Below, piece by piece: positions 26,501 through 64,000 of a DNA stretch of 64,000 nucleotides. The stretch is taken from the IMG/VR virus record IMGVR_UViG_3300027887_000463, positions 9,371 through 73,370 of that record. One strand, given 5' to 3'. Below the pieces are notes generated by a model. That model was not told the origin of the DNA. It did not search any database and saw only the letters and a program-made list of their open reading frames with translations. The first letter of the stretch is position 1. Every line of letters starts with the position of its first letter. This stretch comes from a virus. The translations under genes were made by a program, and so were the position numbers.

Positions 26501-27291
26501 CAATCGTTGGACAAAAAGTTGGTATTAATAAAACTCCAGTGACATATGCTCTTGAGGTCGATGGCGATGTAGACTTGGATAGTACTCACGTATATAGATT
26601 GGCTGGGGCGGATATTAATACGGCTGGCACATTAACTAATGTAGCGTATGAAAATCAGGCAAATACCTTTACTCAAAATAATCTATTCAATGGAACGGTT
26701 AATACCTTCTCCAGCAACGTTGTAGTCAGCGGAACATTGACAGCAAGAGCTACCAAGAATTATTTTGGTACCGCAAATTCTACTATATCCGTTAATGGTA
26801 TGTCGGTATATGGGTCTGGAAATACACGTGTAGTTGTTGAAGCTACGTCTGGTAATGCTGAAATTAATTTAGTACAAAGCACCAATACCTGGGCTATTTA
26901 TACTGGAGCAGGTTCTCTATTCTTCTACAATGGAGGAAATAGGGTTGAAATAGATACCTCTGGAAATGCTATCTTTGCCGGAGATGTTACAGCAAATGGT
27001 TCTCCATCCGATATGGTGTTGAAGATGAACATCAAGGATATGAAGCCTGCTCTGGATAAGATTCTGTCTATGCGACCCGTTGAATTTGACTGGAATCCAG
27101 AAAAGATTGAACGAAGAAAAGGACATGATGTGGGTCTTATTGCCCAAGAGGTTGAGAAGATTGCTCCAGAGTTGGTAACAACTGGGCAGGATGGTATCAA
27201 GAGAATTCATTACGATAAGGCAATACCACTTCTTATCGCAGCTATAAAAGAACTAAAGGATAGGTTAGACAATGTCGGTAGAGCTGAATAA
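17566..27291 (+). CDS. Giant modular tail fibre (3241 aa) with C-terminal peptidase-S74 intramolecular chaperone domain
   Basis: Internal ~45-aa repeats (EISAPTTPSSGFGLLYAKSD..W.KSD.G.EY.LTASG, four copies), GLIGGWxIGxxxLYS...APFRVNxxG repeats, duplicated ~130-aa modules, C-terminal SPSDMVLKMNIKDM...IAQEVEKIAPELV auto-cleaving chaperone signature. Confidence 0.8.
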   Translation: MASFLLKRTTDSIAYGTKVKNGRYVVGAYVVLYNSTTSTLIGQTQTDKYGRWYIIINTSTPDPGIYQVRFYGSGLISAEPPDGDWEFVEIVDTTAAQQGAVTYRGIWKVGTQYYGSAIYHEAVKAPDGKYYYSIADSLGVQPPNAGSWTYFSDQFASVATDLLLAQDVAVGRTITLGTALEDGGAGGILQTAGVTGLRSGTGGFYVKGSGLSELRIGTVDGANLVSGLLWDGPNNIFEIRSKNFSIDQYGNVTITGLITATSGLIGGWTIGPTSLYSNSGAGVGMSSGDWPFYAGDTNPANAEFRVSNAGALYASNATISGSISASSGVIGGWIIGPTYLYSTNVGLAPYDYPVFAGADYSSRASAPFRVNTAGSIYSISGIIGGWALDTNTLTALTNGQIRTGSSGTYITLDRNYLQSSTYISGNQGFRITSSTADAEFNNIVARGTFRASVFAIDEVNATGGTMMVTDAAEVVSGLTTPNDLSTTWYLCARKTYTNQAAMFGGPGTATGYVIRLKFADQAVNGVTDIWATRTSAAAVDGGTYWRFTVQNATVNSQNKNIYKGTAAVGYGTSTSKKIILTSDLGGSAVTPYIDMFTTGSSPWNGVTTNLRLGNLTGITDPSYGTLPSGTYGLYADNAYLKGAIVAASGLIGGWNIGSNYLYSTAGNGEGLAPLDYPFFAGAQYASRASAPFRVNTTGAIYSVSGIIGGWNLTPSQIFARSLVGSGMVSMYGFQASSDWWYGGFELKDWATWRTGNKARYHGFFGMSDNGSPPTKPEIVFYVGATTNTSPRSDAAFYIDMDGGMRFGGTQTQPGMTWDPNTNELTLSGIITATQGKIGGWNIGATSLYAGTGSSTVGLASSGGYAIYAGSATPSAAPFRVDPAGNVWATAGFIGGDDSSTGWEITTGSIATTLNGGEMFLSTVNLERAYASILGIDNYFAGLWTYYTGPIIPGSHEAYSSVNASTTSNVPVIFAGADTKYPVIGTSSIPFYVDAYGNFYTKITEYLQTAYETTSISGLTLSPTTPKNMRIESLIPRSFNESGSGGGLVYESSTGEYKSFTYTSASVTWGGFDFIYTLLNCTSDVGNIVVPVGGRIFARRSVTTINDGGAFSLSTYGPRGVYIGGTNGSSIPLLRVEQYDSDAGTDYQSRAVEIYHYSKFHGSTQPHYAQWIIGGGYGSYRGLSVYADSTGWTPTASGQDTIRGVEADTYAETTAGSNYALAGVAQGGIVAVGIYASATGGGSLGSYAGIFANAPTRFDKQLQIAEISSPTTPGTGYGYLYAKSDNLIYWKSDAGIEYDLTGASSASGITSINTLTSTAQTLVVGTAGTGFNIVSTGSTHTFNLPFAGISTSGIVSTGVQTFSGQKTFNNNVHINGNLVFDGTYTIYPQDATVANDLTIMGGVGSGSGASGGILYLMGGEGNGIGDTGIVSMAYNGTSLGGVVIGSNVLTAGYLLDVYGDIRGYNINAITALKLNGADINTAGTLSNVAYLNQANRFTARQGIFSVAPQLVVSGLTNSEIEVRSTSGGPASISFYNGTDFWQFGHATTVGYYLFQYNSSTKMSINSAGQMTINRIGTPTPLATLDVNGNAYIATGLDVPEGPVHIGAAVGAFTASGITFDKANQSQLVNVWGIDAANSTTSNPGYWGIYSVDANGNASQSYDIRATHDIAIKYDTDNTHSGTFKVWRGNTLGGGTGVFTLDATGQATLVSGLTLGTYLQLPEISAPTTPSSGFGLLYAKSDSKLWFKSDTGQEYNLTASGVTGPAGSNSYVQYNDNGIFGGTSNFEWVNASNSLLITGSMQISKATSGTIWALNSFTNGLGRVLELENSYATVAIEGGPRQYFRATLTGEGGNESFDLSAIAGIVENGDAFDTYQGALAFYYFGGEGTAVTEGARLGSDGMFNMWKNASVSGLIRIKEINAPTTPPSTYGYLYAGTDSKLYWANDLGTTYDLTASGTSGGGISSVGSPAATQVAYWASSTALSGHIGFTYLPGTSALSVSGLIALGSIPSSTGILRIPNNNSIGWRNAANSGDYTLALNSSNLFAFSNSLTVTGGTTISTTHTVTQSTITGNTPAFDGSATWNNSAVTFRGIEFAITTGGAGYQTTSTLLRLRTDSGDRFYVQANGATLIGLAGSDLTINNSTVYATGATVYTGDNLHVGVSDGQAGITFHGASSANKWGFYKLTSTYDFVLYNYTSTRNVLRFAEAAGNLTTLYANMVIEGTTGFNANGETAQLSIGDTNHYAKAVYGSGLAYVTATNEDFTYFAGSTFIYRLGGTGLLTIKELTAPTTTALSGYGYLYANTADGKLYWKDDAGTVYDLTLGSSLPADNITGLGASNRVAYFTGNYTISGNNNFTYNGSTISVSGLLDYNYTTADTHWNLGTRALTLHGTGGADVGYTQIAMYGDSTGERPGFVMGRLGPEFYINVVNTTNRVFSNSFAGLTTMISVSGLALGTQSGNADLMVFGQKVGINRTPTAYALEVDGDINLEAGHILRYAGTDAFAGYTPTSRTLTLTPGAGIGIAPGGAQDLSANRSWTVTVSGTIGATATWNGQVISSTYLDANIAYKNASANITADWIFDGSTYQGITVGGESENGVVRFKTVGSYGTLTSLDLASDYTWYLPNASGVIALTKDLNAYSPATRTLTLVPGGGVGITPGGAQDLSANRSWTLTASGITVLQGGTGATTLTGWVYGNGSSAMTATTTPTFGAGSTWNGNAISSTYLDANIAYKNAANTFSLSQTISADLIFSGANRTIYSLDAATASALYIRAGSSSTSGGAGANLFVCGGPGNGAGTDGNVLLAWDGGSIGAVAIGQGTVTATYLLDVAGSIRSSSSINAVTSFLLNGASLNTGGTLSNVAYKDATNLFTGAMNGFSQTVSVSGLLDYNYTAADTRWNLGTRAVVIIGTGGSDVGYNQLQLLGGSTGERPGLSIGRAVGELGISIANQTNRIFLNSAAGIATFFDTTGILLGTQSGNADLAIVGQKVGINKTPVTYALEVDGDVDLDSTHVYRLAGADINTAGTLTNVAYENQANTFTQNNLFNGTVNTFSSNVVVSGTLTARATKNYFGTANSTISVNGMSVYGSGNTRVVVEATSGNAEINLVQSTNTWAIYTGAGSLFFYNGGNRVEIDTSGNAIFAGDVTANGSPSDMVLKMNIKDMKPALDKILSMRPVEFDWNPEKIERRKGHDVGLIAQEVEKIAPELVTTGQDGIKRIHYDKAIPLLIAAIKELKDRLDNVGRAE
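25130..25172 (+). repeat. 43-bp exact direct repeat copy 1 (inside tail-fibre gene)
   Basis: ctcctggaggagcacaagatctttcagctaatcgatcttggac identical to 25529-25571. Confidence 0.8.
25529..25571 (+). repeat. 43-bp exact direct repeat copy 2 (inside tail-fibre gene)
   Basis: Identical to 25130-25172; flanking duplicated modules are otherwise diverged. Confidence 0.8.
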
Positions 27292-46313: not shown

Positions 46314-49300
46314 ATGGTAAATAAGCTAGATCCAGGTCTCCAGTCTAAGAACATCCAAGAAGCTATAGCAAATGTGATTAAATCACAGTTTCCTATTCAG
46401 GGTCGATATCAAACCTTGGAGCTTGTTGGGCCCCTAACAATTCAAGATGATTTAGATGATCAAGATTTTCCTGCTCAGCGTGAAGCCAAGCTCAGCGGAA
46501 GATCCTGGCAAGTTCCTGTGTACGGAACTTTCCGCCTCACTGATAATAAAACTGGAAATGTTATTGATGAAGCTAAGGATATAAAGGTCGCCAATATTCC
46601 TAAGCTTACGGATCGTTTCTCCATGCTCATCGAAGGTAATGAATATACTACGATGAATCAATTTCGTCTCAAGCCAGGAATTTATACTCGTAAAAAAGCT
46701 AACGACGAAATGGAGTCTCAATTTAATCTTGCCGTAGGTTATAACTTCAAAATGATGATGGATCCGGCAGATGGTATCTTCTATTTATATATTGGAAACC
46801 AGAAGTTCCACCTGTATACCCTGCTTCGTGCTTTTGGCGCCTCAGAAAACGAGATGATTAAATCCTGGGGCAATGCTCTGTTTGATAAAAACAAAAATGC
46901 TGGCCTCAACGAAGAGGGAAAAGAAATACCTCTGATGTGGGAGAAGTTGAAGAGACAAAAACTTCCATACGAAGAAGCTCTCAATGCTTTAAAGGATTAT
47001 TTCGATAAGACCAGAATTGATGTTGATACCACAGAAATTACCCTTGGTCGTGGAGTAGATCGTGTTACTCCAGATGCATTACTTCTTACTTCATCTAAAC
47101 TCTTACGTGTTCTACGTGGAGACGAGCCAGAAGATGAGCGCGATAGCCTAGTCTTCAAAGATCTCTATACCGTCGATGATCTTGTTCAAAAACATATCGA
47201 GAAGCGTGCTCCGAATATTCAAAAGAATCTTTTAGCCAGAACAGACCATAAGCAATCAATAAGAGAAATCATCTCACCAGATACTTATACCAAAGATATT
47301 AAGTCTTTTTTCACGCAAGGTGACTTAAGTAACCCATCCCCACAGACTAACCCCGTCGAGATGTTGGGCGAGTGGCGGAAGACTACTATCACAGGCACGG
47401 GTGGTATTCAGAGTTCACATGCCATCACCTTCAAAACTCGTGACATTCACCCAACACACTTGGGTTTTGTTGATCCTCTTAATACTCCAGAGTCGGGTAA
47501 AGTAGGTGTAACCCTTCCTCTAGCTATGCATGTTGAGAAACATGGAAAAGATATTAAGACACGATTGGTTACTCCAGAAGGAAAAGATATATTTGCCACA
47601 CCAGTAGAATTCTACAAAATGAAGGTCGGATTTCCAGATCAGCATGTTGAGGGTAAAGCTAAAGGCACCATGATTAAGGCGATGTATCGTGGGCAATCTG
47701 TGGTTCTTCCTGCCAAAGATATTGATGCATATATTCTTGACCCAACAAGTATGTTTGCTTGGACAACTAACCTTGTTCCATTCTTAGGACATAACTCGGG
47801 TAACCGCGCCCTCGTGGCCGCTAAAATGGTAACTCAAAGTGTCCCATTGAAAGCTCCAGAAACTCCTCTGGTAAAAGTTGTTGGACAAACCGGAGAAACG
47901 CTTGATTCAGTATTAGGCACGTTCTTAAAACCTAAGGTTCCTAAAGGATTTGGAACAGCCACTGTAATGAAGATCGATGATGACTACATTCATATAAGAA
48001 ATGAAAAGGGCGATCGTCATAAAGTTGGTTTATACAAAGACTTCCCGCTAAATCAAGAATCTTTTATTAATTCACGAGTTCTAGTTGATATCGGGCAGAA
48101 AGTCAAGGAGGGTGAACCTCTAGCGGATACTAACTTTTCAGACAAGAGTGGAAACTTTGCTCCTGGTGTAAATGTCAATGTTGCATATATGCCTTGGCAT
48201 GGATATAACTACGAGGACGGTATTGTTGTTACAGATTCTCTTTCCAAACGTTTTACATCAACTGTAATGTTGAAAAAGAATCTGCAGGTAGGGAAGGATA
48301 GTATTCTAGACCTAAAGAAATTTGTTTCATATTATCCTAAAGAATTGACGGTTGCCAACATTGAGAAAATGGATGATACAGGAGTAATAAAGGAGGGCGT
48401 TCGTATTGAGCCCGGTGAAACACTTATTGCTCATCTAAGCAAAATGGATCTAACGGATACACAAAAGATCCTAAAAAATATGAATCGTGTATTATCCAAT
48501 CCTTATCGTAATCAATCTCTTACCTGGGATGGAGAAAATCCAGGTGTTGTAACCCACGTTAGAAAAGTAGGAAATACTTATCAAATTCATGTGAAGGAAG
48601 AGCAACCACTCAAGGTTGGGGATAAGCTAGCCGCTCGGTATGGGGATAAAGGTATTGTTACGAAGATCATTTCAGATTCCGAAGCACCCCATACCAAAGA
48701 TGGAAATCGTATAGATATGATGGTTAATATTCATGGTGTAGTAGGCCGTATGAATATGGGGCAGCTACTTGAAGCAGCTGCTGGTCGAATCGCTATGAAG
48801 ACAGGCAAGCCTTTCTTAGTAAAGAACTTTGCTGACCGAGATTATCTATCTGATATTATGGCTGAAATGAAGAAGTTAAAACTTGAACCTAATGAGACGC
48901 TTCTGGATGGAGCAACGGGTAAGCCATTTGAAAAACCAGTCTTCTGGGGCAATAAGCATTATCTAAAGCTGATGCATGTAGTTGATCATAAGTACAAAGC
49001 TCGTGGAATCCCCGGATCTTATGATGCAAATGAGCAACCCGTCCATGGCGAGGTCGGAGGACAATCAGTTGATCCTCTACAGATGTATTCGTATCTTGCG
49101 CACGGTGCACGAGAGAATCTATATGAATTTACCGCGGTGAAAGGTCAGAAGAATGACGAGTATTGGCGTGCGCTACAGCTCGGTCTTCCGCCTCCTCCAC
49201 CCCAAAGAAACTTTGTCTTTGATAAGTTCATTAATTATATCAAGGCAGCTGGGGTTAATGTTGAGAAGAATGGAACTCGGTTTAAACTATTCCCAGCCAC

Positions 49301-52300
49301 CTCAGATGATATGTTAAAATGGTCTGCTGGCGAGCTTACAGATCCTGGTCATATGTTACGTGGAAAAGATCTTAGTGAAATTAAGGGTGGTTTATACGAC
49401 CCGAAATTAACGGGAGGGCTGCGAGGTACTAACTGGACCCACTTCAAACTAGAAGAGCCGATCCCCAATCCATTATATGAAAATGCAGTTAAGTCAATCT
49501 TAGGGCTAAATACACCTGCATTTGAACGTATCATCAATGAAGATGATAAAGATTCAAAGATGAAAGGTAACCAGCGTATAGCCAAAATGCTTTCGGATAT
49601 TGATATAGATGAAGAATTAGCCAAAGCTAAGGACGCCCTAAAGACAGCTGGACCTACACAAGTTAACACTTTGAACAAAAGGATTCGTTTCCTATCAGTG
49701 TTGAAGGAGCGTAATTTACGTCCTGAAAAAGCATATATGATGGAATTGATACCAGTACTTCCTCCAATTTATAGGCCAGTTTATCCATTACCTTCCGGAG
49801 ATACACAGAATTCTCCAATTAATTATCACTATCGTGACGTAGCTGTGTTGAATCAGTCTATAAAAGATATAAAAGCACAAGGTCATTTGATAGATGAGTT
49901 GGAACAGAACAGAAAGAATAGATCTGACTTATACAAATCTGTAAAAGCTTTAATGGGATTAGCAGAGCCCATCACCTTTACTACTCGTCAATATGAAGGA
50001 CTTCTTGGAACTCTTGCCGGAGATTCTCCAAAGCAAGGATTCATTCAGAACAAGTCCTGGTCGAAACGTCAAGATTTATCGGCTCGGTCCACGATCACAG
50101 TGGAACCTTCGCTCGGTATCGATCAAGTTGGATTGCCTGACGTCATGTTGAAAGATCTCTTTAAACCGTTTGTTATGAGAGAAATTGTACGCCAAGGTTA
50201 CAAACCAACTGAAGCCTTAGAACAGATAAAAACCTGGACTCCTGTAGCGGAACAAGCTCTGAATAATGCTATTAAACAGCGGCCCGTTATGCTTAACCGG
50301 GCACCATCTCTTCATAAGCATTCAGTACAGGCATTCTGGCCACAGAGATTTGAAGGACAAAGTATTCGTGTAAGTCCATTGACAGCAAAAGGATTTAACT
50401 TTGACTTTGATGGCGACACCATGTCAGTACACGTTCCTGTGTCTGAAAAAGCTGTGGAAGAAGCTAAAGGCATGCTGCCAACAAAGAATCTCTACAAAGC
50501 CGGCGATCGTCAGCATATGATTAATATTGAACAGGATTACCAGCTTGGTCTTTATTATTTATCACAGCTCGGAGCAGATACTGGAAAACGATTTTCTTCT
50601 ATTAGCAAGGCAATAAAGGAAGTTAAGGATCGTAATACTACCTTTACTTTAGATGGTAAAAAGATGAGTATCGGACAATGGGAAATTAACGACCCACTTC
50701 CTGATGCTTTGAAAGATTATACGCGACTCATGGATTCAAAAGCCGTCAAAGGTTTAGTAGATACATTATTTATGAAATATCCCGGTTATCTTGGAACTGT
50801 TATTGATACCTGGAAGGAGCTCGGAAGAAACTACGCAGTTCAAAGAGGTAGTACCGTGTCCATTACAGATATGGTCGTTGATCGCAGTTACAGGGATAAG
50901 ATCTTAAAAGATTATGAAGCTAAAATTAAGCCTGGTATGGATAAATATGAAGTCTCAAAGATCTATGGTGATGCTAAAGCTGAGATGGAAGAGGCTCAAG
51001 AAAAGCTTCTAAAGGGGAAGAACAACTTTTATGATATGTTACAAGCTGGAAGTACTTCGAAGAAGGGTCAGGTTACACAGATCCTTTCCATGCCGGGCAT
51101 TATGATGGACGTTCACGGAGAGCCAATTCCACATCCTGTAAAGAAATCTTGGTCAGAAGGTCTTGATACATTTGATTATTGGAACCAGTCTTATGGTGCC
51201 CGTAAAGGTGTTGTGGATCGTTCCGTTAATACTCAAGATTCTGGAGCTTTAAATAAAGAACTTCTATTTACTACTAAGAGTTTATTAGTTATTGAAGAAG
51301 ATTGTGGAACTCCAGAGGGTATTATATTAGATACTGATTCCAAAGAAGTTATGGATCGATTTCTTTCAAGTGATGTTCCGGGCGTTGGTAAGAGAAATGA
51401 TCTTGTTACAAATGAGCGTATGTTAAAAGCGAAAACAAAGAAAATAGAAAAACTTCCAGTACGATCATCTCTCACCTGTGAAGCTGAGGGCGGAGTTTGT
51501 CAGAAATGTTATGGCCTTATGGCAAACGGACAACTTGCTCGTATAGGAGAAAATGTAGGAGTTATTGACTCTGAGGCTGTTACTGAACGTTCTACTCAAT
51601 TACAAATGCAGACTTTCCATACTGGGGGTGTTGCAGGCGGAGGGGCAGCAGTAACATTAGGGTTCCCTAGATTGGAAGAGCTCTTGTATGTTCCACAGAA
51701 GATTCGAGACGCAGCGGTTCTTTCGCGAGAAGATGGTATTGTTACTCAAATTACAGAGAATCCAGCAGGAGGAAAAAATCTCTTCATTGGTCGTAGTGAG
51801 TACTATATTCCAAGAGAGAGACGTCTAGACGTTTCCGTCGGCTCTCGAGTAAAACGTGGTGATCGTTTAACAGATGGTTCCATTAAGCCACAGGAATTGT
51901 CGGAATTAAAAGAGCATCTTACAGCCCAGCAATATATAGCAGATGAAATCAATAAGATTTATGAGAATAAATTTGCAAGGAAAACTTTTGAAACCGTTTT
52001 ACGTGGTGTAGCAAATAATGCCGAAATAACAAATATTCCTGAAGAAGTAGAAGCAAGTGCTAATTTTATGCGGGGCGATACAGTACCGATAACTCGTGTA
52101 AAGAAATTAAATAGAGAGCTACTTGCTGAAGGAAAACCACAGATAGAATATAAGCCATTCTTTAAATCTATCTCTGTACTCCCATTACATAGTGACGATT
52201 GGCTAAGTAGATTAACAACAAACAGATTAAAACAAACTATCCAAGAGGCAGCTTCTATGGGTATGGAGAGCGATGTTAAGGGCACAGACCCGATGTCTGC

Positions 52301-52361
52301 TTATCTATATGGACTTGATTTTGGAAAAGATGTTGATCCAACAAAGAAGAAATTCTATTAA
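46314..52361 (+). CDS. Fused beta-beta' multisubunit RNA polymerase catalytic subunit (RpoB-RpoC-like single polypeptide, about 2015 aa)
   Basis: RpoB-like segments (FLGHNSGNRALVAAKMVTQSVPL; YMPWHGYNYEDGIVV; AARYGDKGIVTKI...RMNMGQLLE; GGQSVDPLQMYSYLAHGA) followed by an RpoC-like catalytic region (NRAPSLHKHSVQAFWP...FNFDFDGDTMSVHVPVS = NADFDGD motif). ATG 46314 with RBS preferred over the upstream TTG used in the ORF track. Confidence 0.8.
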   Translation: MVNKLDPGLQSKNIQEAIANVIKSQFPIQGRYQTLELVGPLTIQDDLDDQDFPAQREAKLSGRSWQVPVYGTFRLTDNKTGNVIDEAKDIKVANIPKLTDRFSMLIEGNEYTTMNQFRLKPGIYTRKKANDEMESQFNLAVGYNFKMMMDPADGIFYLYIGNQKFHLYTLLRAFGASENEMIKSWGNALFDKNKNAGLNEEGKEIPLMWEKLKRQKLPYEEALNALKDYFDKTRIDVDTTEITLGRGVDRVTPDALLLTSSKLLRVLRGDEPEDERDSLVFKDLYTVDDLVQKHIEKRAPNIQKNLLARTDHKQSIREIISPDTYTKDIKSFFTQGDLSNPSPQTNPVEMLGEWRKTTITGTGGIQSSHAITFKTRDIHPTHLGFVDPLNTPESGKVGVTLPLAMHVEKHGKDIKTRLVTPEGKDIFATPVEFYKMKVGFPDQHVEGKAKGTMIKAMYRGQSVVLPAKDIDAYILDPTSMFAWTTNLVPFLGHNSGNRALVAAKMVTQSVPLKAPETPLVKVVGQTGETLDSVLGTFLKPKVPKGFGTATVMKIDDDYIHIRNEKGDRHKVGLYKDFPLNQESFINSRVLVDIGQKVKEGEPLADTNFSDKSGNFAPGVNVNVAYMPWHGYNYEDGIVVTDSLSKRFTSTVMLKKNLQVGKDSILDLKKFVSYYPKELTVANIEKMDDTGVIKEGVRIEPGETLIAHLSKMDLTDTQKILKNMNRVLSNPYRNQSLTWDGENPGVVTHVRKVGNTYQIHVKEEQPLKVGDKLAARYGDKGIVTKIISDSEAPHTKDGNRIDMMVNIHGVVGRMNMGQLLEAAAGRIAMKTGKPFLVKNFADRDYLSDIMAEMKKLKLEPNETLLDGATGKPFEKPVFWGNKHYLKLMHVVDHKYKARGIPGSYDANEQPVHGEVGGQSVDPLQMYSYLAHGARENLYEFTAVKGQKNDEYWRALQLGLPPPPPQRNFVFDKFINYIKAAGVNVEKNGTRFKLFPATSDDMLKWSAGELTDPGHMLRGKDLSEIKGGLYDPKLTGGLRGTNWTHFKLEEPIPNPLYENAVKSILGLNTPAFERIINEDDKDSKMKGNQRIAKMLSDIDIDEELAKAKDALKTAGPTQVNTLNKRIRFLSVLKERNLRPEKAYMMELIPVLPPIYRPVYPLPSGDTQNSPINYHYRDVAVLNQSIKDIKAQGHLIDELEQNRKNRSDLYKSVKALMGLAEPITFTTRQYEGLLGTLAGDSPKQGFIQNKSWSKRQDLSARSTITVEPSLGIDQVGLPDVMLKDLFKPFVMREIVRQGYKPTEALEQIKTWTPVAEQALNNAIKQRPVMLNRAPSLHKHSVQAFWPQRFEGQSIRVSPLTAKGFNFDFDGDTMSVHVPVSEKAVEEAKGMLPTKNLYKAGDRQHMINIEQDYQLGLYYLSQLGADTGKRFSSISKAIKEVKDRNTTFTLDGKKMSIGQWEINDPLPDALKDYTRLMDSKAVKGLVDTLFMKYPGYLGTVIDTWKELGRNYAVQRGSTVSITDMVVDRSYRDKILKDYEAKIKPGMDKYEVSKIYGDAKAEMEEAQEKLLKGKNNFYDMLQAGSTSKKGQVTQILSMPGIMMDVHGEPIPHPVKKSWSEGLDTFDYWNQSYGARKGVVDRSVNTQDSGALNKELLFTTKSLLVIEEDCGTPEGIILDTDSKEVMDRFLSSDVPGVGKRNDLVTNERMLKAKTKKIEKLPVRSSLTCEAEGGVCQKCYGLMANGQLARIGENVGVIDSEAVTERSTQLQMQTFHTGGVAGGGAAVTLGFPRLEELLYVPQKIRDAAVLSREDGIVTQITENPAGGKNLFIGRSEYYIPRERRLDVSVGSRVKRGDRLTDGSIKPQELSELKEHLTAQQYIADEINKIYENKFARKTFETVLRGVANNAEITNIPEEVEASANFMRGDTVPITRVKKLNRELLAEGKPQIEYKPFFKSISVLPLHSDDWLSRLTTNRLKQTIQEAASMGMESDVKGTDPMSAYLYGLDFGKDVDPTKKKFY

Positions 52362-53791: not shown

Positions 53792-55960
53792 TTATTTGTT
53801 CACAACGACAACCTTTCCGTCGACCAGTTGAACTTCAAATGACCTTGCATCTGGATTCTCCAGAAGAAGATCTGCCATCTTTGATTCAACTTCCTTTTCA
53901 ATCAATCGACGCATTGGTCGAGCACCATATTCCGTAGAGTAGCCCTTTTCCAAGAACCAGTCTTCGGCTTCTGGTGTAAAGCTCATCGTAAACCGTTCGT
54001 TGATATCGTTTACCATAAGCTTCATGATCTGTCTCATACTGTCCTTATCGAGACGATTAAAGGTAACAATCTCGTCAAGGCGGTTGAGAAACTCCGGCTT
54101 GAAAAAGCTCTTCAACGCCGCCTTAAGATTCTTCTTCATATCATCATCTGCTGATGTTTCAGAGAATCCAAGGTTACGTTTTCCGGCGCTCTCAACACCG
54201 ATGTTTGACGTGATAATGATAATAGTATTTTTGAAACTGACAACCCTCCCTTGAGAATCAGTCAGAATACCATCATCAAAAATCTGAAGAAGCACATTGA
54301 ATACATCCGGATGCGCTTTCTCTATCTCATCAAACAATACAACTGAATACGGCTTCTTACGAACTTTCTCTGTAAGCTTTCCACCGCTATCATCGTATCC
54401 GATGTATCCCGGAGGAGCTCCGATAAGCGAAGAGATGGTGAACCGATCAAAGAATTCACTCATATCCAAACGAATCATTGCCTGTTCCGAATCAAACAGA
54501 TATCTAGCCAACTGTCTGGCCATCTCTGTTTTTCCAACCCCAGTAGGTCCAATGAAGAGGAAGGTGCTTGGGCGTTTATCGCTTTTGACACCGGTGCGTT
54601 TCCGTTTAATTGAGTTGGATACAGCTTGAATAGCATCTGGCTGTCCAACCAATCTTCCAGAAAGATCGGTATCAATGTGCTTTAACTTTTCCCGTTCCGA
54701 CTTATTGAGATTGGTGATAGGAACACCGGTTGTCTTCGAAACTACTCCTCGAATGATATCATTGTCGACCTGGACTGTGCCAGCGAGTTTTGCGACTGCC
54801 GCAGCTTCATCCAAAACGTCAATGGCTTTATCAGGAAGGAAACGATCCTGAATATAGCGTTCGGTGAGTTCAATAATGGTTGGAATAGCTTCCTGTGGAA
54901 TTTCCACCCCGTGATAAAGTTCATAGACATATTTGATTTGGCCGAGAATCTGTGCGGTTTCCTCCAGGGTTGGTTGCTCAATCATCACCTTCTGAAATCT
55001 CCGCTCCAACGCTCCATCCTTCTCGACATGCTTGCGAAATTCATTGGCAGTAGTTGCGCCAATGCATTTAATGTATCCACGTGATAGTGCCGGCTTGATG
55101 ATGTTTGCAGCATCACCAGTTCCCTCAGTACCTCCCGTACCCATAAGGGAATGCATCTCATCGATAAACAGAATGATATCAGGATTCTTCATCAGTTCCT
55201 TGATAATCATCTGCATCCTCTGCTCGAATTGTCCCCTGTACTGCGTTCCCGCAATAATGGAGTTGATGTCAAGTGAAAGGATTCTTTTGTTGAGAAGCAT
55301 TTTGGGAACATTACCCGCAGCGACGCGCATTGCCAGACCTTCGACAATAGCGGTCTTTCCCACGCCTGGCTCACCGATCAACGCAGGGTTGTTCTTCTTC
55401 CTGCGTGCTAGGATCTCGATGACACGTGAGATTTCGGATTCGCGTCCGATGACCGGATCTAACTTATTCTCCTGAGCCAGAATCGTCAGATCCATCGAAA
55501 AAGCATTTAGTGCCGGAGTGTTTTGTGAACTTGTCCGATCACTTGATACCTTTTTCTTTGGTTCTCCGACTTCAGTGTAGCCAACTTCATTGAGCATCTT
55601 GGACGCTACACTGTCTGGTGTACGATAGAGACTGTGAACTAAAGCATCTGCTTCTATTGTTCCGGTTATCGATATGAACTTGGCGAAGTTCAGAATATAA
55701 CGCATCGAATTCGAAACTTTCGGAAGAGGGTTCGTTACTGCAATATCCCTCTGTATTACACGGAATCGATCCGACAAGAGTGTACGAAGTTTACCAATGT
55801 TTGCCCCATTCTTGTTTAAAAGCGTAAGGCCTTCGTTATCACCTTGCTCCACGATTGCAAAAAGTAAGACTTCACTGGAAATTGTATCTTGGTTAAGCTC
55901 CGTCGCTTTCTTTCGAGCTAATCCAAAGATTTCCTCTGTCTTTGTTGAATACTGATTCAT
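53792..55960 (-). CDS. ClpA/ClpC-like two-ring AAA+ unfoldase (about 722 aa from MNQYSTK)
   Basis: N-terminal Clp_N repeat, D1 Walker A GEPGVGKTAIVEGLA, D2 Walker A GPTGVGKTEMARQLA, DRFLPDKAIDVLDEA; RBS AAAGGAG-N7-ATG at 55960. Confidence 0.85.
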   Translation of the reverse strand: MNQYSTKTEEIFGLARKKATELNQDTISSEVLLFAIVEQGDNEGLTLLNKNGANIGKLRTLLSDRFRVIQRDIAVTNPLPKVSNSMRYILNFAKFISITGTIEADALVHSLYRTPDSVASKMLNEVGYTEVGEPKKKVSSDRTSSQNTPALNAFSMDLTILAQENKLDPVIGRESEISRVIEILARRKKNNPALIGEPGVGKTAIVEGLAMRVAAGNVPKMLLNKRILSLDINSIIAGTQYRGQFEQRMQMIIKELMKNPDIILFIDEMHSLMGTGGTEGTGDAANIIKPALSRGYIKCIGATTANEFRKHVEKDGALERRFQKVMIEQPTLEETAQILGQIKYVYELYHGVEIPQEAIPTIIELTERYIQDRFLPDKAIDVLDEAAAVAKLAGTVQVDNDIIRGVVSKTTGVPITNLNKSEREKLKHIDTDLSGRLVGQPDAIQAVSNSIKRKRTGVKSDKRPSTFLFIGPTGVGKTEMARQLARYLFDSEQAMIRLDMSEFFDRFTISSLIGAPPGYIGYDDSGGKLTEKVRKKPYSVVLFDEIEKAHPDVFNVLLQIFDDGILTDSQGRVVSFKNTIIIITSNIGVESAGKRNLGFSETSADDDMKKNLKAALKSFFKPEFLNRLDEIVTFNRLDKDSMRQIMKLMVNDINERFTMSFTPEAEDWFLEKGYSTEYGARPMRRLIEKEVESKMADLLLENPDARSFEVQLVDGKVVVVNK

Positions 55961-56374
55961 AGTACTCCTTTTGTGAATAAAATTTGGAAGGCTGCGATCC
56001 GCAATCCTTGATAACATACCGTCCGATTATTAGGCCATCGGGGCCTATTATCATTCCTACTATTCCATACTGCTACCTGATCACGAAACGTAACCCTGGA
56101 ATGGGAAATGCATTCCGCGATTGGGATGACAACCTTCCCTTGAAAGGGATAACCTGGCCAGGACTAGAGCTTCTCCACAGCCCCTTTGCTAGGGTAGGGC
56201 CGTGTGTCTGAAAAGTACAGATACCCCTCCCCAGGTCCTTTGCCTGGGCGTTAGGGCTCATCAAAAGTCGAAGCGACTTTCTATAGCTTGATAGCTTCTT
56301 CAAACCAAATTGGCCGAAGAATCCTCATGCGCCCACCTCTACTCGTAGCCAAGCTCCCTAATTACTTCTTATCC
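55961..56374 (-). promoter_or_regulatory. About 410-nt untranslated, GC-elevated, hairpin-rich region upstream of the clpA-like gene (candidate structured leader or sRNA)
   Basis: No convincing ORF (two overlapping antisense 75-aa ORFs only); multiple G/C hairpins such as CCCAGG-TCCTTTGC-CTGGG and GCCC-TTTGCTAGGGTA-GGGC. Confidence 0.3.
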
Positions 56375-58044: not shown

Positions 58045-58066
58045 AAGGGCACGGTTAGGTGCCCTT
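58045..58066 (-). terminator. Hairpin plus T-run overlapping the stop codon of the RNA-repair gene (possible partial terminator/attenuator)
   Basis: Minus strand AAGGGCAC-CUAACC-GUGCCCUU-UUAUUU; stop codon lies in the loop. Confidence 0.35.
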
Positions 58067-60223
58067 CTCCTTGTAATACATATTTCTCAATGTGATGATA
58101 TCTCGTGATAGCTCTTCTTCAGTTCTGGTTTTGAGCCAGGCATAGAAGTAGTTGGCTTCGGGCGTAACCAATCCCGAGAGATTCACCTGTCGTCTTGCAC
58201 GAACAGCATCCTTCACTACACGCATATGTTTCCAGAAGTTGTAGTAAGGGAGCTTAAGCTTCATCATAAAGCCATTGGAATCCTCAAAGACAAATCCCTC
58301 GATATCCGAGGTAGTTGCCGTTTCACATTCCTTATAGAATTGAAGAAGCTCTTCCTTCGAGTTCAGAGTCTTATACAATTGCTTCGAGCGATGTGGCATA
58401 TTCAGTGAATGGGCAAATGCCAGCATCTCCTGATATGGCAACTTCTCGTAGTCAAGTGTTCTCCGCACTGCATCCAGAAGAACTAATCCCTGTCTGTCGG
58501 GATATGCAATGATATGAGGATCGGTATCTTGATCAACTACTTCGAAGACAAGAGTGACGTTGTGTCCCTTGAGAATTGCTTTGAGATAATCCGGATCTAC
58601 GTTTGTGGTTAATGCCCACACACGCTTGAAGATGTCCGGATAGATTCCCTCAACAGAACTCTTGGAAAGGAAGAGAACCTGATCGGAAGCAGTATCATAA
58701 CCGACCATACCCAGGAATCCATTATACTTCTCGTACACATGGACAGGATATTGAAGGTTAACCGTTTCAATCTTAGTCTCATCTCTTTCGTTCACATTGA
58801 AAAACTTATTATATGAACGAGCCACAATTTCATTTGTCACCGTATTGACGAACAGTCCTCTGGCTTTTACTGTCATTCCATCCCAAATCTTCTTGTAGAA
58901 CGCACCACGGTTGAAGTTAAACGAGGAGATATCTCCGAACTTGCGCTCATTGATGTGTCTGCTCTTCCTTAAATCCTCCACGAACGAGGAAGGACCGAGA
59001 GTGGTTTCCACTTTTATATTTTTTGGACGAAATACAGTATTCGGAATCTCCCATGTCTTGATCTCCAAAGAATCACGATAGAGAGTAACAGCCCGAAGAT
59101 TTCCTCCGAACTCAATGTTACCCTGCAGATTATAATACTTTGGGTTGATCTTTATAGGCGATTCCGTAACGTTTCTATGGCCAGATATCTGGATGGCATC
59201 CGGCGGAGAATTCTTCTCCCACGATTCAGCAACCTCCAGCATATCTTCATAGCGTCCCACACCTTTGATAAATTGTTCGGTAGCAATTGTGATGAGGTCT
59301 TCAGGGAGCTTAGAGATGCCTCCGTGGGTTACCAGAACGAGCTGATTTCCCAAACGGAAATATGCAACCTGAGCAAACTTCCTACACAACTGCCGTACGG
59401 ATCCCTTATCCAAAGCTGCGGACTCGAGTTCTCTTTTGGTTTGGAAAAGGAATTCATTGGAACGAATCTTTTCCTCTTCCTGGTTGGCCCAGTATCTCAA
59501 CCACCGCTCGTGATTCCCCTCCAGAAGAAGTATATTAGGCTTTTCATAATTCTCGATAAGCCAACGTACCACCTCGGTATTCTGAATCCCACGATCGATA
59601 AAATCACCAACAAAGATGTAATAGTGATTTTCGTGATAGCCAACTGCATCGAACCACACTTTCAGCGGTTCATAACATCCGTGAATATCTCCGATAATGT
59701 GCACCTGTTCATATTCAAATGCAAGCGGTGCATAATCAAAGACGCCCATATAGTCAGCCGGCTTGACAACCTGGACATAACCAGGAACCGGTTGACTCTT
59801 TAGTCGAGCTTCGATATTATCGAGCACAAATTCCGGAACCCACTTATATTCCGGACGGGTCTTATTCTGAAGTTTGCATTGTTCCAGAGGAACATCGGAG
59901 AAGTCGATACAATAGATACGGTATCGATACTCTCCTGCCAACTTCTTATACTTGGCAAAATCGCTGGCCTTGGAGTGAGTAGCATCAATGAACACCAGTT
60001 CTCCGCGTTCCATGCGAGTTTCCAACATTTCGAATAGAAGTCCCCAAACCTTTCGGTCATTCTCCGGGCTAATCGCGTACACTCCCTTAGGAGTAAGTAC
60101 CGGCGCCTGGAGTTGGAGACGAATGTCATCAGCGCACAATGTGTAAGGGCGCAGGCCTTCCTGTTCGAGCCAGGTAGACTTTCCGCATCCGACATTACCG
60201 CGGAGAAGATAGAGGTGTCTCAT
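58055..60223 (-). CDS. Trifunctional RNA-repair enzyme: polynucleotide kinase, metallophosphoesterase-type phosphatase and ligase-like nucleotidyltransferase (bacterial Pnkp-like), 722 aa
   Basis: N-terminal P-loop GNVGCGKST; central calcineurin-like motifs HIIGDIHGC, VGDFIDRG, GNHE; C-terminal nucleotidyltransferase motif I EKYNGFLGM (KxNG). Confidence 0.7.
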   Translation of the reverse strand: MRHLYLLRGNVGCGKSTWLEQEGLRPYTLCADDIRLQLQAPVLTPKGVYAISPENDRKVWGLLFEMLETRMERGELVFIDATHSKASDFAKYKKLAGEYRYRIYCIDFSDVPLEQCKLQNKTRPEYKWVPEFVLDNIEARLKSQPVPGYVQVVKPADYMGVFDYAPLAFEYEQVHIIGDIHGCYEPLKVWFDAVGYHENHYYIFVGDFIDRGIQNTEVVRWLIENYEKPNILLLEGNHERWLRYWANQEEEKIRSNEFLFQTKRELESAALDKGSVRQLCRKFAQVAYFRLGNQLVLVTHGGISKLPEDLITIATEQFIKGVGRYEDMLEVAESWEKNSPPDAIQISGHRNVTESPIKINPKYYNLQGNIEFGGNLRAVTLYRDSLEIKTWEIPNTVFRPKNIKVETTLGPSSFVEDLRKSRHINERKFGDISSFNFNRGAFYKKIWDGMTVKARGLFVNTVTNEIVARSYNKFFNVNERDETKIETVNLQYPVHVYEKYNGFLGMVGYDTASDQVLFLSKSSVEGIYPDIFKRVWALTTNVDPDYLKAILKGHNVTLVFEVVDQDTDPHIIAYPDRQGLVLLDAVRRTLDYEKLPYQEMLAFAHSLNMPHRSKQLYKTLNSKEELLQFYKECETATTSDIEGFVFEDSNGFMMKLKLPYYNFWKHMRVVKDAVRARRQVNLSGLVTPEANYFYAWLKTRTEEELSRDIITLRNMYYKEKGT

Positions 60224-60690
60224 TATGACTTCCTTAACATAGTTAAGATTTGATTTCCTTCTCGTTTTGGAGTATCCATTGCGAAATGGGTTAGTTCTGC
60301 TTTTATTTTTTCGAGTAATTCAAATCCCTGTTCGGGACGAGTTATTTCTCGACCATGAAAGCGAACTATCAAACGAATAGGATGTCCCTTTTCGAGTAGT
60401 TCATTGATATGCCGAGCTTTTGTTTGAAGATCATGGTCGGCAATATTAATATTGAATCGAAACTCTTTTAGATCTGGCGCAGGTTTCGTCTTATGCGCTT
60501 TTTTCTGTTGATACTGAAACTTCTCAAAGTCTTGAATCTTGCAGACACCGCGCCCAACTTCTACAAGATCCAAACTCCTTGTATGTGCTAATTTTATAGC
60601 CTCGGTCGTAGCTAGAGTTCCGAGATTATTTCCGTTCTCGTCAATAACAAGAACGGGAGTGTCCGTGATCTGATTATTTACACGGTTCAA
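60223..60690 (-). CDS. infC: Translation initiation factor IF-3 homologue with non-AUG (TTG) start; stop overlaps the ATG of the RNA-repair gene (TAATG)
   Basis: VLVIDENGNNLGTLATTEAIKLAHTRSLDLVEV...CKIQDFEKFQYQQKKA...LIVRFHGREI matches IF3 N- and C-domain signatures; no in-frame ATG between the upstream TAG and the conserved N-terminus; GGAGA nine nt before TTG. Confidence 0.7.
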   Translation of the reverse strand: MNRVNNQITDTPVLVIDENGNNLGTLATTEAIKLAHTRSLDLVEVGRGVCKIQDFEKFQYQQKKAHKTKPAPDLKEFRFNINIADHDLQTKARHINELLEKGHPIRLIVRFHGREITRPEQGFELLEKIKAELTHFAMDTPKREGNQILTMLRKS

Positions 60691-61051
60691 GTTCGATCTT
60701 CTCCAATGATTGGATATTTGTGTATGCGTAAAAGGTACCTAGTTTGGTACCCGTATCTTTGAAACATAGTTTAATCTTTACACTATGCGCAGATTCATAG
60801 AACGGCATTGTATACCCCAGTAACTCTAGCTGAGTTCCCGCAGGTAGAAGCAGTTGTCCGTTTCTAGGTATTCCGTATTGACCTCTGTGTACATTGGGAT
60901 CTGGAGTGAACATATTTCCAGCAAAAGTACTCACTCGCTTCTGTGCGTAACTTGTGGAGAGTTCTATTGAGACCAACTGGTCTTTTATTACAATAAACTC
61001 TCGCTTACCCTCAAAAAAATTGAATCTCATTTTAAAGACCAATCTAACCAT
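60674..61051 (-). CDS. Hypothetical protein (125 aa)
   Basis: ORF overlapping the infC-like start. Confidence 0.4.
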   Translation of the reverse strand: MVRLVFKMRFNFFEGKREFIVIKDQLVSIELSTSYAQKRVSTFAGNMFTPDPNVHRGQYGIPRNGQLLLPAGTQLELLGYTMPFYESAHSVKIKLCFKDTGTKLGTFYAYTNIQSLEKIELEPCK

Positions 61052-62025
61052 TTCGGATTACGTACATACCAGTTGACTGTTTTGCTGAGACATTCTTCAA
61101 ATTCCATTGGAATCTTCCAGCCCATATTTTCCATCTTGGTTCCGTCCAGAGCATAGCGTAAGTCATGTCCTGGCCTCGATGAATGAAAGTCAACTAGTTC
61201 GTATTTTAGTTCTTTCCCAAGGATGACGGCAATATCATGTGCCATATCCAAGTTACTAACCTCTTTTTCTCCTACAATATTAAACTTATCACCATTGTCT
61301 GTATGAGAGTTCAGAAGAAAGTGAATAGCTGATGCAACATTTCTTGCATGGATATAAAATCGTGAGCCAGATTTTGTTCGTTCTGGATTAGAGTGTATTT
61401 CAATAGTTCGTCCAGCAAGAATATCAATAATACATTTGGGTATGAATTTTTCTGGGTGTTGTCGTTCTCCAAAAACATTCATTGTGTGGGTGATGATGAT
61501 GGGAAGTTTGTAGGTATTTTCATACGCTATACAAAGCTCTTCTCCGCCCGCTTTAGTAGCTGCATAAGGATTTTTTGCATTGTAGCGATCCCATTCCTTA
61601 AAAGCTATACCTTCGGGTGCCGGTCCAAAAACCTCATCTGTAGAAAAGTAAATCATTTTCTCTAGATGCCGTAGATTTCGAGCAAACTCTAAAATCTCTA
61701 AGGTCCCCACTACGTTTGAATAAACAAAGCGTCGTGGTTCGGTTATTGAGTTATCTACGTGTGTCTCTGCACCCAGATGTAGAATGTAATTTACATCGCC
61801 GATTTCATTGAGTAGCCCCTCATTTATGGGCTTCGTAAAATCCGCAGTAAAGGTAGTTACACGCTTATCATCATACACGTTAATATCGCGTAACCGATTG
61901 AATCCATGTGAAGCATATGTTAATTTATCGAATACGACTATGCTCCAGTCAGTATTTTTCAGAAAATGTTCTACGATGTGGTGCCCGATGAAACCAGCAC
62001 CACCCGTAATTAAGATTATTGGCAT
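61027..62025 (-). CDS. rmlB: dTDP-glucose 4,6-dehydratase (RmlB-like short-chain dehydrogenase)
   Basis: ILITGGAGFIGHHIV, DKLTYASH (RmlB KLTYAGN), YAATKAGGE (YxxxK), full-length collinearity with RmlB. Confidence 0.8.
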   Translation of the reverse strand: MPIILITGGAGFIGHHIVEHFLKNTDWSIVVFDKLTYASHGFNRLRDINVYDDKRVTTFTADFTKPINEGLLNEIGDVNYILHLGAETHVDNSITEPRRFVYSNVVGTLEILEFARNLRHLEKMIYFSTDEVFGPAPEGIAFKEWDRYNAKNPYAATKAGGEELCIAYENTYKLPIIITHTMNVFGERQHPEKFIPKCIIDILAGRTIEIHSNPERTKSGSRFYIHARNVASAIHFLLNSHTDNGDKFNIVGEKEVSNLDMAHDIAVILGKELKYELVDFHSSRPGHDLRYALDGTKMENMGWKIPMEFEECLSKTVNWYVRNPKWLDWSLK

Positions 62026-62369
62026 AGATTAAGAAGAAGGCCCTGTTCGTCTTCATCCGCATTGCGGCATATAGCGCCTTCAAAAACCCTCATGTTAAAA
62101 GTTTTGGGACGAACATTTAATTCCGGTCTCGGCCCATTGTAATCGAATCGTTCAAGGAGAGCTGCGAGATTTATACGAATCTGCATACGCACTGCCAGAC
62201 GTTTCGTAGCACGAGCTTCTCCCTCTAAATATATACGGTATTTACTCAACGTCTTGTGGCGTTGCATTTCACTCATAAGCCTCACTTCATCCGCAATATG
62301 GTTAAAATAAGGCTGTAAAATTTCATTGACCACCTTGACTGATGGTTCAATGGCAGGCAACTTTGTCAT
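62016..62369 (-). CDS. Hypothetical protein (117 aa)
   Basis: ORF. Confidence 0.4.
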   Translation of the reverse strand: MTKLPAIEPSVKVVNEILQPYFNHIADEVRLMSEMQRHKTLSKYRIYLEGEARATKRLAVRMQIRINLAALLERFDYNGPRPELNVRPKTFNMRVFEGAICRNADEDEQGLLLNLCQ

Positions 62370-62404
62370 AGAAATTCTCCTTTGTTACTTTCTTATACCA
62401 TGAA

Positions 62405-62437
62405 AGTAAAAAAAATGAGGGGGAGTTTATCTCCCCC
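62405..62437 (-). terminator. Rho-independent terminator after the SPFH-like gene
   Basis: Minus strand GGGGGAG-AUAAA-CUCCCCC followed by TCATTTTTTTT. Confidence 0.6.
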
Positions 62438-62443
62438 ACATTA

Positions 62444-63640
62444 CTACTTCTTTGGAATTGAAAGGTCGAGTGCCAAATCCTTGGCGGTCTTGACTGAGAG
62501 CATATCAATCAAAGCCGTTGCGGAATTATAGCTACCCTTACCAGCACCGCTTCCCTCAAAAATCACATCAGGAACCCACTTCTGTTTGCCAATGTTTTCG
62601 GCAAAAGCAGTCATGACCGCCTGATAGGTTTCCAACTTCTGGGTCAAGGCACCATCAGCAATAATGATCTTACGCTTGTATTCAGCATCAGCTTCAGCTT
62701 CGAGAATTCTCTTCTGCTTATACTGACCGGCTGTTTTGGTTTCAAGCGTAGCAACTTCCAGCTTCTGCTGGGCTTCTGTTACCATCTTGGCCTTGATTAC
62801 TTCCTGTTCCCATTTGGCTTTTGCGGCTTCTGCACGACCATTCTGTTCCGCGGTAATCGCTTGCTGTTCAGCTTCGCGAGCCTTTGCGGAGGCAGTTTGA
62901 ATCTGCATAATTGCCTGTTGCTGAGCCTGGATCTGCTTCTCAACGTTTTCGTCGTAGCCAACGTTATTGATCGAAAGGTTGAAAGTCTTTACTCCAAAAA
63001 CTGCAAGAGGAGATTCATCCTGCCGTTCAAAGGTGCCATCCTTACCTTTCAATACGTCAACAACCGTGAGAGTACGTGGAGAACCAGATAGAGGATCCTT
63101 ATCTTGAACCTGATATGAACGGGTCTTATAAACCCCATTCTCGATCTGGTCTTCGATAAAACGGATTAACTCATTCCGGCGTTCAGCATAAGACTCTTTT
63201 GACGACATAAGAGGGCCAGTCATATAGACTGATTTCTCTACGATCGTTCGTACGAGTTGCTGCTCAATGGCCTGCTGGCTTCCATACTTGGTATGAAGCA
63301 TAACCAAATGCTGTTCATCCACAGGCATTTCCCACGCAATTGATCCAGAGACACTGCCATGACCACCATCATTGAATCGAACTGAGATGGCCTGATTCAT
63401 TTCTGTTCCCTGATCATCTTTTTCTGAGAACCAGAATTGGGATCGCTTTTGATACTTGGTGACTTTGCCGAAACCCTGCCACTTGAAATTTCCAGGAGTC
63501 ATGTGCCAGGTGAGATCTCCCGAAAGAGACTGAACCACCATGATCTCGTCGGCGTCGTTACTTTCGAAAATGTTGAAACTTGCAAAGATCAGAACGATCG
63601 CAAGAATGGCAACGGCTCCGAGGCCGAAGATCTTGCGACC
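62444..63640 (-). CDS. SPFH/band-7 flotillin-like membrane protein, N-terminally truncated at the compositional junction
   Basis: TM helix [19 protein letters not shown], then an SPFH-like domain and a long Ala/Glu/Gln/Lys coiled coil; no start codon before the TM (the ORF runs open into antisense high-GC DNA); codon usage more GC-rich than the other phage genes. Confidence 0.5.
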
Positions 63641-63644
63641 CGCG

Positions 63645-64000
63645 TCGAGCTCGGCGGGCGGCGGTTCCTGCGCCGTTCCGGCCGCGGCGCGTTCGTCACA
63701 CGCCTTGCCGACGGCCGGCCGCTCGGCGTGATCAACGCGATGGGCCGGGTCTTCATGCCGCCGGTCGACAATCCGTTCGAGGCGGTCGCCGCCGCCGTCG
63801 ATCGCCTGTCGCGCGAATCCCGCGTCATCGTCGTCGACATGCACGCGGAAGCCACGGCCGAGAAGATCGCGATGGGCTGGCACCTCGATGGCCGCGCGGC
63901 CGCGCTGGTCGGCACGCACACCCACGTGCAGACCGCCGACGCCCGCATCCTTCCAGGCGGCACGGCGTACATCACCGATGTCGGCATGACCGGGCCGCAC
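63645..64000 (+). CDS. ymdB: Internal fragment of a YmdB-family metallophosphoesterase (2',3'-cyclic-nucleotide phosphodiesterase) from a high-GC bacterium; partial at both ends
   Basis: [33 protein letters not shown]...[57 protein letters not shown] collinear with B. subtilis YmdB residues ~115-215; GC ~68%. Confidence 0.65.

Follow-up and report, generated by a model that had tools for sequence, protein, structure and literature searches.

The window, by which we mean the whole 64,000-nucleotide stretch of DNA that was analysed, is phage DNA up to position 63638 and ends in a few hundred nucleotides of unrelated, high-GC sequence. The junction between the two consists of three parts: phage DNA, in which a gene for an SPFH/Band_7 protein is cut near its start; a 39-nt orphan segment (hereafter referred to as the bridge); and, from 63678 onward, a fragment of a bacterial ymdB gene. 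A single open reading frame crosses all three on the minus strand. The features of the region are listed below, together with the matches that define them, which are described in the following paragraphs.

62444-63638, minus strand: phage SPFH/Band_7 gene, 5′-truncated, codons 31-427 and stop codon (Pfam Band_7; identity to P0001, L003, L104 and L105).
63639-63677, no strand assigned: 39-nt orphan bridge CCCGCGTCGAGCTCGGCGGGCGGCGGTTCCTGCGCCGTT, 79% GC (no match to L003 or L004).
63678-64000, plus strand: internal fragment of Acidobacteriota ymdB (TIGR00282/YmdB metallophosphoesterase), running to the contig end (L004; Pfam YmdB).
62444-64000, minus strand: spurious 518-aa chimeric ORF made of the SPFH body and the antisense of bridge and ymdB (identical to P0244).

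The two sides differ sharply in composition, with a GC content of 41.7% over 1-63638 and 72.9% over 63639-64000. Across all 362-nt windows of the phage part, GC averages 41.7% (sd 3.6%, maximum 56.9%), which places the terminal 362 nt at z = 8.7; moreover, the step at the junction is the biggest between adjacent windows in the 64 kb. The jump in GC that a previous, sequence-only reading of this DNA had placed near 63600 is therefore genuine, but its position needs correction, as homology sets the breakpoint at 63638/63639. A change point derived from GC alone falls at ~63607, short of the homology-defined position because the last 39 phage bases (63600-63638), which are codons of a transmembrane (TM) helix, already have a GC content of 59%. 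Likewise, the advice to treat 63600-64000 as foreign holds for 63639-64000, whereas 63600-63638 is phage sequence (100% identity to L003, L104 and L105).

The low-GC side belongs to a large tailed phage, with genes for a baseplate J/wedge protein, a portal, a fibre and RNA polymerase. Its gene content includes the following.

17566-27291, plus strand: fibre-like protein of 3,241 aa, with the intramolecular chaperone domain Peptidase_S74 at its C-terminus (domain match).
40479-41363, minus strand: retron-type reverse transcriptase, 294 aa (RVT_1 and PADLOC retron RT models).
46266-52361, plus strand: fused RNA polymerase, Rpb2 (beta) and Rpb1 (beta′) in one 2,031-aa ORF with a TTG start (domain matches).
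53792-56017, minus strand: ClpB-like double AAA+ ATPase (domain matches).
58055-60223, minus strand: 722-aa fusion of an AAA_33 kinase, a calcineurin-like phosphatase and a T4 Rnl1-type RNA ligase (domain matches).
60223-60690, minus strand: translation initiation factor IF3, with IF3_N and IF3_C (domain matches).

A fused multisubunit-type RNA polymerase is also found on the JGI sister contig; the fibre-like protein contains many internal direct repeats (families D1-D10); and the 722-aa fusion is, as predicted from its domains, an RNA-repair cassette in one polypeptide. Another region of the window, ~620 nt at 42043-42662, is free of long ORFs on the minus (gene) strand, has AT-rich flanks and gives no Rfam match; within it, 42147-42508 reaches 56.9% GC, the second-highest GC bump of the window.

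The reverse transcriptase matches Pfam RVT_1 (E = 4e-23), and its best PADLOC model is RT_III-A (E = 3.4e-73). The 346 nt just upstream, on the strand of the gene (the element as a whole spans 40479-41709), are a non-coding spacer with a folding energy of −144.7 kcal/mol (z = −9.06 against shuffles), whose predicted fold is closed by a long terminal stem resembling the a1/a2 repeats of retron msr-msd RNA. The spacer has no Rfam match, no template/variable (TR/VR) repeat pair of the DGR type was found, and the neighbouring ORFs, of 110 and 294 aa, match no family. Reverse transcriptase and spacer together constitute a candidate phage-borne retron, which is of more interest than the junction and deserves an evaluation of its own.

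The phage gene interrupted by the junction has its stop codon at 62444-62446 and encodes a protein that matches Pfam Band_7 (PF01145) above cut-off (E = 1.8e-10); the hydrophobic TM stretch of its N-terminal membrane anchor is still present in the window ORF. A protein search with the SPFH body identified a 427-aa protein (P0001) on a 30,550-bp JGI contig. The window ORF is 100% identical to residues 31-427 of this protein, from R31 (RKIFGLGAV...) to the C-terminus, and unrelated to it before R31, where the native N-terminus is MRSNKQKIKQSKGRRMSPNFPSSTGSVVNP; a 412-aa protein (P0242) also shows 100% identity with the window ORF from R31 on. The native SPFH protein thus comprises 427 aa, or 412 aa if counted from the second ATG, and codons 1-30 of the 427-aa form are exactly the part missing from the window, which bears out the earlier claim that the gene has lost its start.

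Continuous phage DNA spans the same site in other assemblies. A contig named WSSedA2C3DRAFT_1004069 (L003) and two Logan contigs, from SRR407549 (L104) and SRR407548 (L105), are 100% identical to the window at the DNA level up to exactly 63638. Past the breakpoint, all three are mutually 100% identical for at least 1,536 nt, with a GC content of 42.3%, and this continuation carries the missing 30 SPFH codons plus further small phage genes. The 30,550-bp JGI contig has the same gene order, a complete 427-aa Band_7 gene and ~5.4 kb more phage genes beyond the SPFH start. In all, four independent assemblies of the same phage (L003, L104, L105 and the 30.5-kb JGI contig) read through the breakpoint into phage DNA. 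Runs carrying the phage are SRR407548, SRR407549, SRR1184661 and SRR5246787, which are surface-sediment libraries from the Twitchell Wetlands (PMC7329831, ref. 30). A megablast of 60000-64000 against GenBank phages returned no match, and neither did two exact phage-side probes against IMG/VR, by which neither the phage nor its source contig was found in that collection. As for the far end of the continuation, L003 carries a tRNA-Gln(ttg) at its positions 10-81, in native phage DNA ~1.5 kb beyond the breakpoint; L104 and L105 end at one shared point within this tRNA, 25 nt inside the end of L003, which suggests another branch of the assembly graph there.

Homologues of the SPFH protein with 40-55% identity are found on 18 IMG/VR contigs, the longest of which measures 424 kb. 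The start of the gene, consisting of ATG, a short tail and the TM helix, is intact in all of the loci that include it (17/17; L086-L102), and in the same 17 the GC content of the upstream 400 nt is equal to or lower than that of the SPFH gene, with no upstream rise. Homologues in named records come from MAGs of Candidatus Yanofskybacteria, Candidatus Falkowbacteria or unclassified bacteria, not from Acidobacteriota. The window gene resembles the SPFH/Band_7 proteins of large phages (stomatin, prohibitin and HflK/C-like) in its Band_7 domain, its N-terminal TM helix, its coiled-coil-rich C-terminus and its conservation, at the above level of identity, in related jumbo-phage contigs; it differs from them in that the window copy is artificially decapitated.

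On the other side of the bridge, the plus strand encodes part of a YmdB-family protein, with codons in frame from 63680 and a GC3 of 90.7%. The match to Pfam YmdB (PF13277; E = 1.4e-46, 159 bits against a cut-off of 27) covers profile positions 93-201 of 253, the N-terminal positions 1-92 being absent. It is accordingly an internal fragment, as the sequence-only reading had recognized; it has no start codon, its 5′ end is cut by the junction and its 3′ end by the end of the contig and window. Genes are thus cut on both sides, with the SPFH gene devoid of codons 1-30 and the YmdB fragment beginning at profile position 93, so that the description of both as incomplete stands.

Over 63678-64000, the fragment differs from a 1,209-bp JGI contig (3300035675 Ga0316618_00929729; L004) by one mismatch in 323 nt (99.7% identity), a synonymous GTC/GTG change in a Val codon, and the residues encoded by the tail are 100% identical to part of P0121, the protein encoded by L004. 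Upstream, L004 and the Acidobacteriota homologues L005-L007 go on as normal ymdB, unlike the window, and native ymdB homologues have ~100 more N-terminal residues. L004 itself ends 17 nt upstream of the point where the ymdB match of the window begins, which suggests a contig boundary or graph branch there. The closest GTDB loci are Acidobacteriota/Vicinamibacterales MAGs, with 58-82% amino acid identity (best 82%), and not Actinobacteria, whose style of codon usage the sequence-only reading had seen in the fragment. When classified separately, the two sides of the junction have different affiliations, one with a large tailed phage and the other with Acidobacteriota ymdB. Relative to the YmdB family (PF13277/TIGR00282; also annotated as 2′,3′-cyclic-nucleotide 2′-phosphodiesterase), to which the tail aligns very strongly, the window copy differs by being an internal fragment only, located in the wrong genome and not a functional gene in this context.

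A separate observation concerns the annotation of acidobacterial ymdB, which in several assemblies is called as at least two short ORFs or from an internal Met (L085 3636-4465, ENA contig_22643; P0126, P0130, P0178). The split ymdB of L085 looks like a frameshift error of assembly rather than a real split gene. Many catalogue entries for ymdB are 145-207 aa long, while the complete genes of the closest genomes are ~100 residues longer N-terminally.

The bridge matches neither L003 nor L004 and has no exact match among the first 103 loci retrieved. Neither direct nor inverted copies of it are found in the window or in L001-L004, where only chance 9-10-mers occur, and on this basis an origin as a hairpin or MDA-type chimera copy of nearby DNA was rejected. 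The possibility that the bridge is native upstream ymdB, possibly frameshifted, was also discarded, as its length, frame and sequence disagree with L004-L007; in these loci, native ymdB reads ...LLRPLNM(S/A)xxAPGRG... at the place of the bridge, and the window differs from this in every frame. A plus-strand frame across the breakpoint reads L-R-P-A, which resembles the ymdB motif LLRP, but the first six bases of this stretch are phage, and neither its frame nor its spacing to the downstream GRG motif fits; the likeness is treated as chance. At neither breakpoint do the phage and bacterial partners have sequence of k-mer length in common.

On the minus strand, the frame of the SPFH gene remains open through the antisense high-GC DNA up to the end of the window, as noted from the sequence, and yields the 518-aa ORF. 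Because antisense high-GC DNA rarely has stop codons, this ORF is a by-product of the join; the chance of encountering no stop in 120 codons of such composition is ~0.13, a value on which the idea of a meaningful antisense frame was rejected, and the ORF is no real protein. Its sequence is found, residue for residue, in a JGI/IMG catalogue entry (P0244) that derives from a 73,370-bp contig and falls in the 90%-identity cluster of P0001. P0244 begins with V, from a GTG at 63998-64000, which is the notation for a 5′-partial gene at a contig edge. Since gene calling on the 73,370-bp contig yielded P0244 as a single gene, the join predates extraction of the window and was made in the original assembly; and since it starts at the contig edge, the foreign DNA is a terminal tail of at most ~362-364 nt. 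A ~362-nt tail is about as long as one library fragment.

We conclude with high confidence that the junction arose through chimeric metagenome assembly at the tip of a contig and is an artefact, not biology. In this reading, the window is the last 64 kb of a JGI contig (73,370 bp) that represents a large tailed wetland-sediment phage with a GC content of ~42%. At the extreme end of the contig, within codon 30/31 of the SPFH gene, the assembler departed from the genuine phage sequence and attached 362 nt of unrelated high-GC DNA, namely the 39-nt orphan and then a 323-nt interior piece of an Acidobacteriota ymdB gene. The join would most probably have been introduced by extension of the contig tip with one or few chimeric library fragments or, alternatively, by a wrong scaffold link that was closed by gap filling. 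Repeat-mediated collapse of the assembly graph is unlikely, because the partners have no k-mer-length sequence in common at either breakpoint and are separated by the orphan.

The junction is similar to those of inter-genome chimeric contigs from short-read metagenomes in its abrupt switch of composition and taxon within one contig, in the near-identity of each side to separately assembled, non-chimeric contigs, and in having genes cut on both sides, at a contig terminus and in a complex sediment community. It differs by the lack of a repeat or k-mer common to the partners and by the 39-nt orphan between them, which favour a chimeric fragment or an error in gap closure as the source. In the MetaHipMer synthetic-read test set, 1-2% of the contigs in assemblies are chimeric, and chimericity and misassemblies have been quantified for MetaHipMer, MEGAHIT and metaSPAdes (PMC7329831).

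The alternative that the contig faithfully represents a real environmental hybrid, in which illegitimate recombination or aberrant packaging/transduction joined phage and Acidobacteriota DNA in a minority of molecules, draws on the fact that the phage and ymdB sequences have each been assembled on their own and are genuinely environmental. Homology-free junctions with filler nucleotides, such as the 39-nt bridge, can also come from end joining in vivo. However, the site is crossed without a break in four other assemblies of this phage, at 100% identity, and the gene whose start the join removes is conserved and intact in all relatives for which the start is available (17/17). The disparity between 42% and 72% GC makes an Acidobacteriota host unlikely. 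The SPFH homologues in named records are from MAGs of Yanofskybacteria, Falkowbacteria or unclassified bacteria and not from Acidobacteriota, and the foreign sequence is confined to a ~362-nt tail at the end of the contig. A hybrid is therefore very unlikely. A more specific version, in which DNA of a jumbo-type phage (42% GC) and of a bacterium with 70% GC, an improbable host for it, underwent illegitimate end joining with 39 filler nucleotides, is even less likely; were it true, the hybrid molecule would be a snapshot of DNA exchange between phage and Acidobacteriota in wetland sediment. We consider a join made after assembly highly improbable, too, with a phage contig and a short contig of acidobacterial origin having been concatenated when the bin, the database or the window was built. 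Such a concatenation would agree with both genes being cut at arbitrary internal positions, and L004, the separately assembled ymdB contig, likewise stops no more than 17 nt from there. Against it, the JGI/IMG catalogue has the 518-aa fusion as a single gene of a single contig of 73,370 bp, and the 39-nt orphan, foreign to both partners, would need to be the erroneous end of one record. Of the two origins that the sequence-only reading had left side by side, chimeric assembly is thus supported by the read-through assemblies and the 99.7% match to L004, whereas artificial concatenation is contradicted by P0244.

The presence of phage beside bacterial DNA could also be taken for a prophage-host boundary (attL/attR) in an Acidobacteriota chromosome, or for a host gene fragment taken up as a moron or auxiliary gene; this coexistence is the one observation in favour of either, and we give them almost no credence. 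As in attL/attR junctions and Mu-like packaged host flanks, the boundary between phage and bacterial DNA is sharp. Its position, however, is inside a phage coding sequence, uninterrupted in other assemblies of this phage, and does not coincide with attP or an end of the phage. The boundary also differs from such junctions by the lack of an att core, of a nearby integrase or transposase and of matched compositions. Elsewhere, the phage continues for at least 1.5 kb of DNA and ~5.4 kb of genes past the site. The 64-kb window contains no tRNA and an Rfam search gave no match; the partners share no core sequence; and no integrase was detected with Pfam, PHROGs or PADLOC among the ~25 window ORFs scanned, which include all genes up to 5.6 kb from the junction. 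A prophage boundary is effectively refuted by the read-through contigs, and integration into a high-GC genome, which had been deemed implausible from composition, is so on the grounds of the breakpoint position, the missing att core and tRNA and the continuity of the phage elsewhere. As for an acquired gene, the ymdB sequence is an internal fragment without a start and unameliorated (99.7% nucleotide identity to a bacterial contig, GC3 91%), and ymdB is absent both from the four other assemblies of the same phage and upstream of SPFH in 17 relatives.

With the tail read as an assembly chimera, the contig should be trimmed at 63638, and P0001 (427 aa) should be taken as the native SPFH protein of this phage. 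Neither P0244 nor the ymdB fragment should be used in annotation or host prediction, or as evidence of auxiliary genes or horizontal transfer. A chimeric tail of this kind can be diagnosed without reads, by means of independent assemblies that read through each side; left untrimmed, it could make a host or taxonomy predictor tie the phage to Acidobacteriota.
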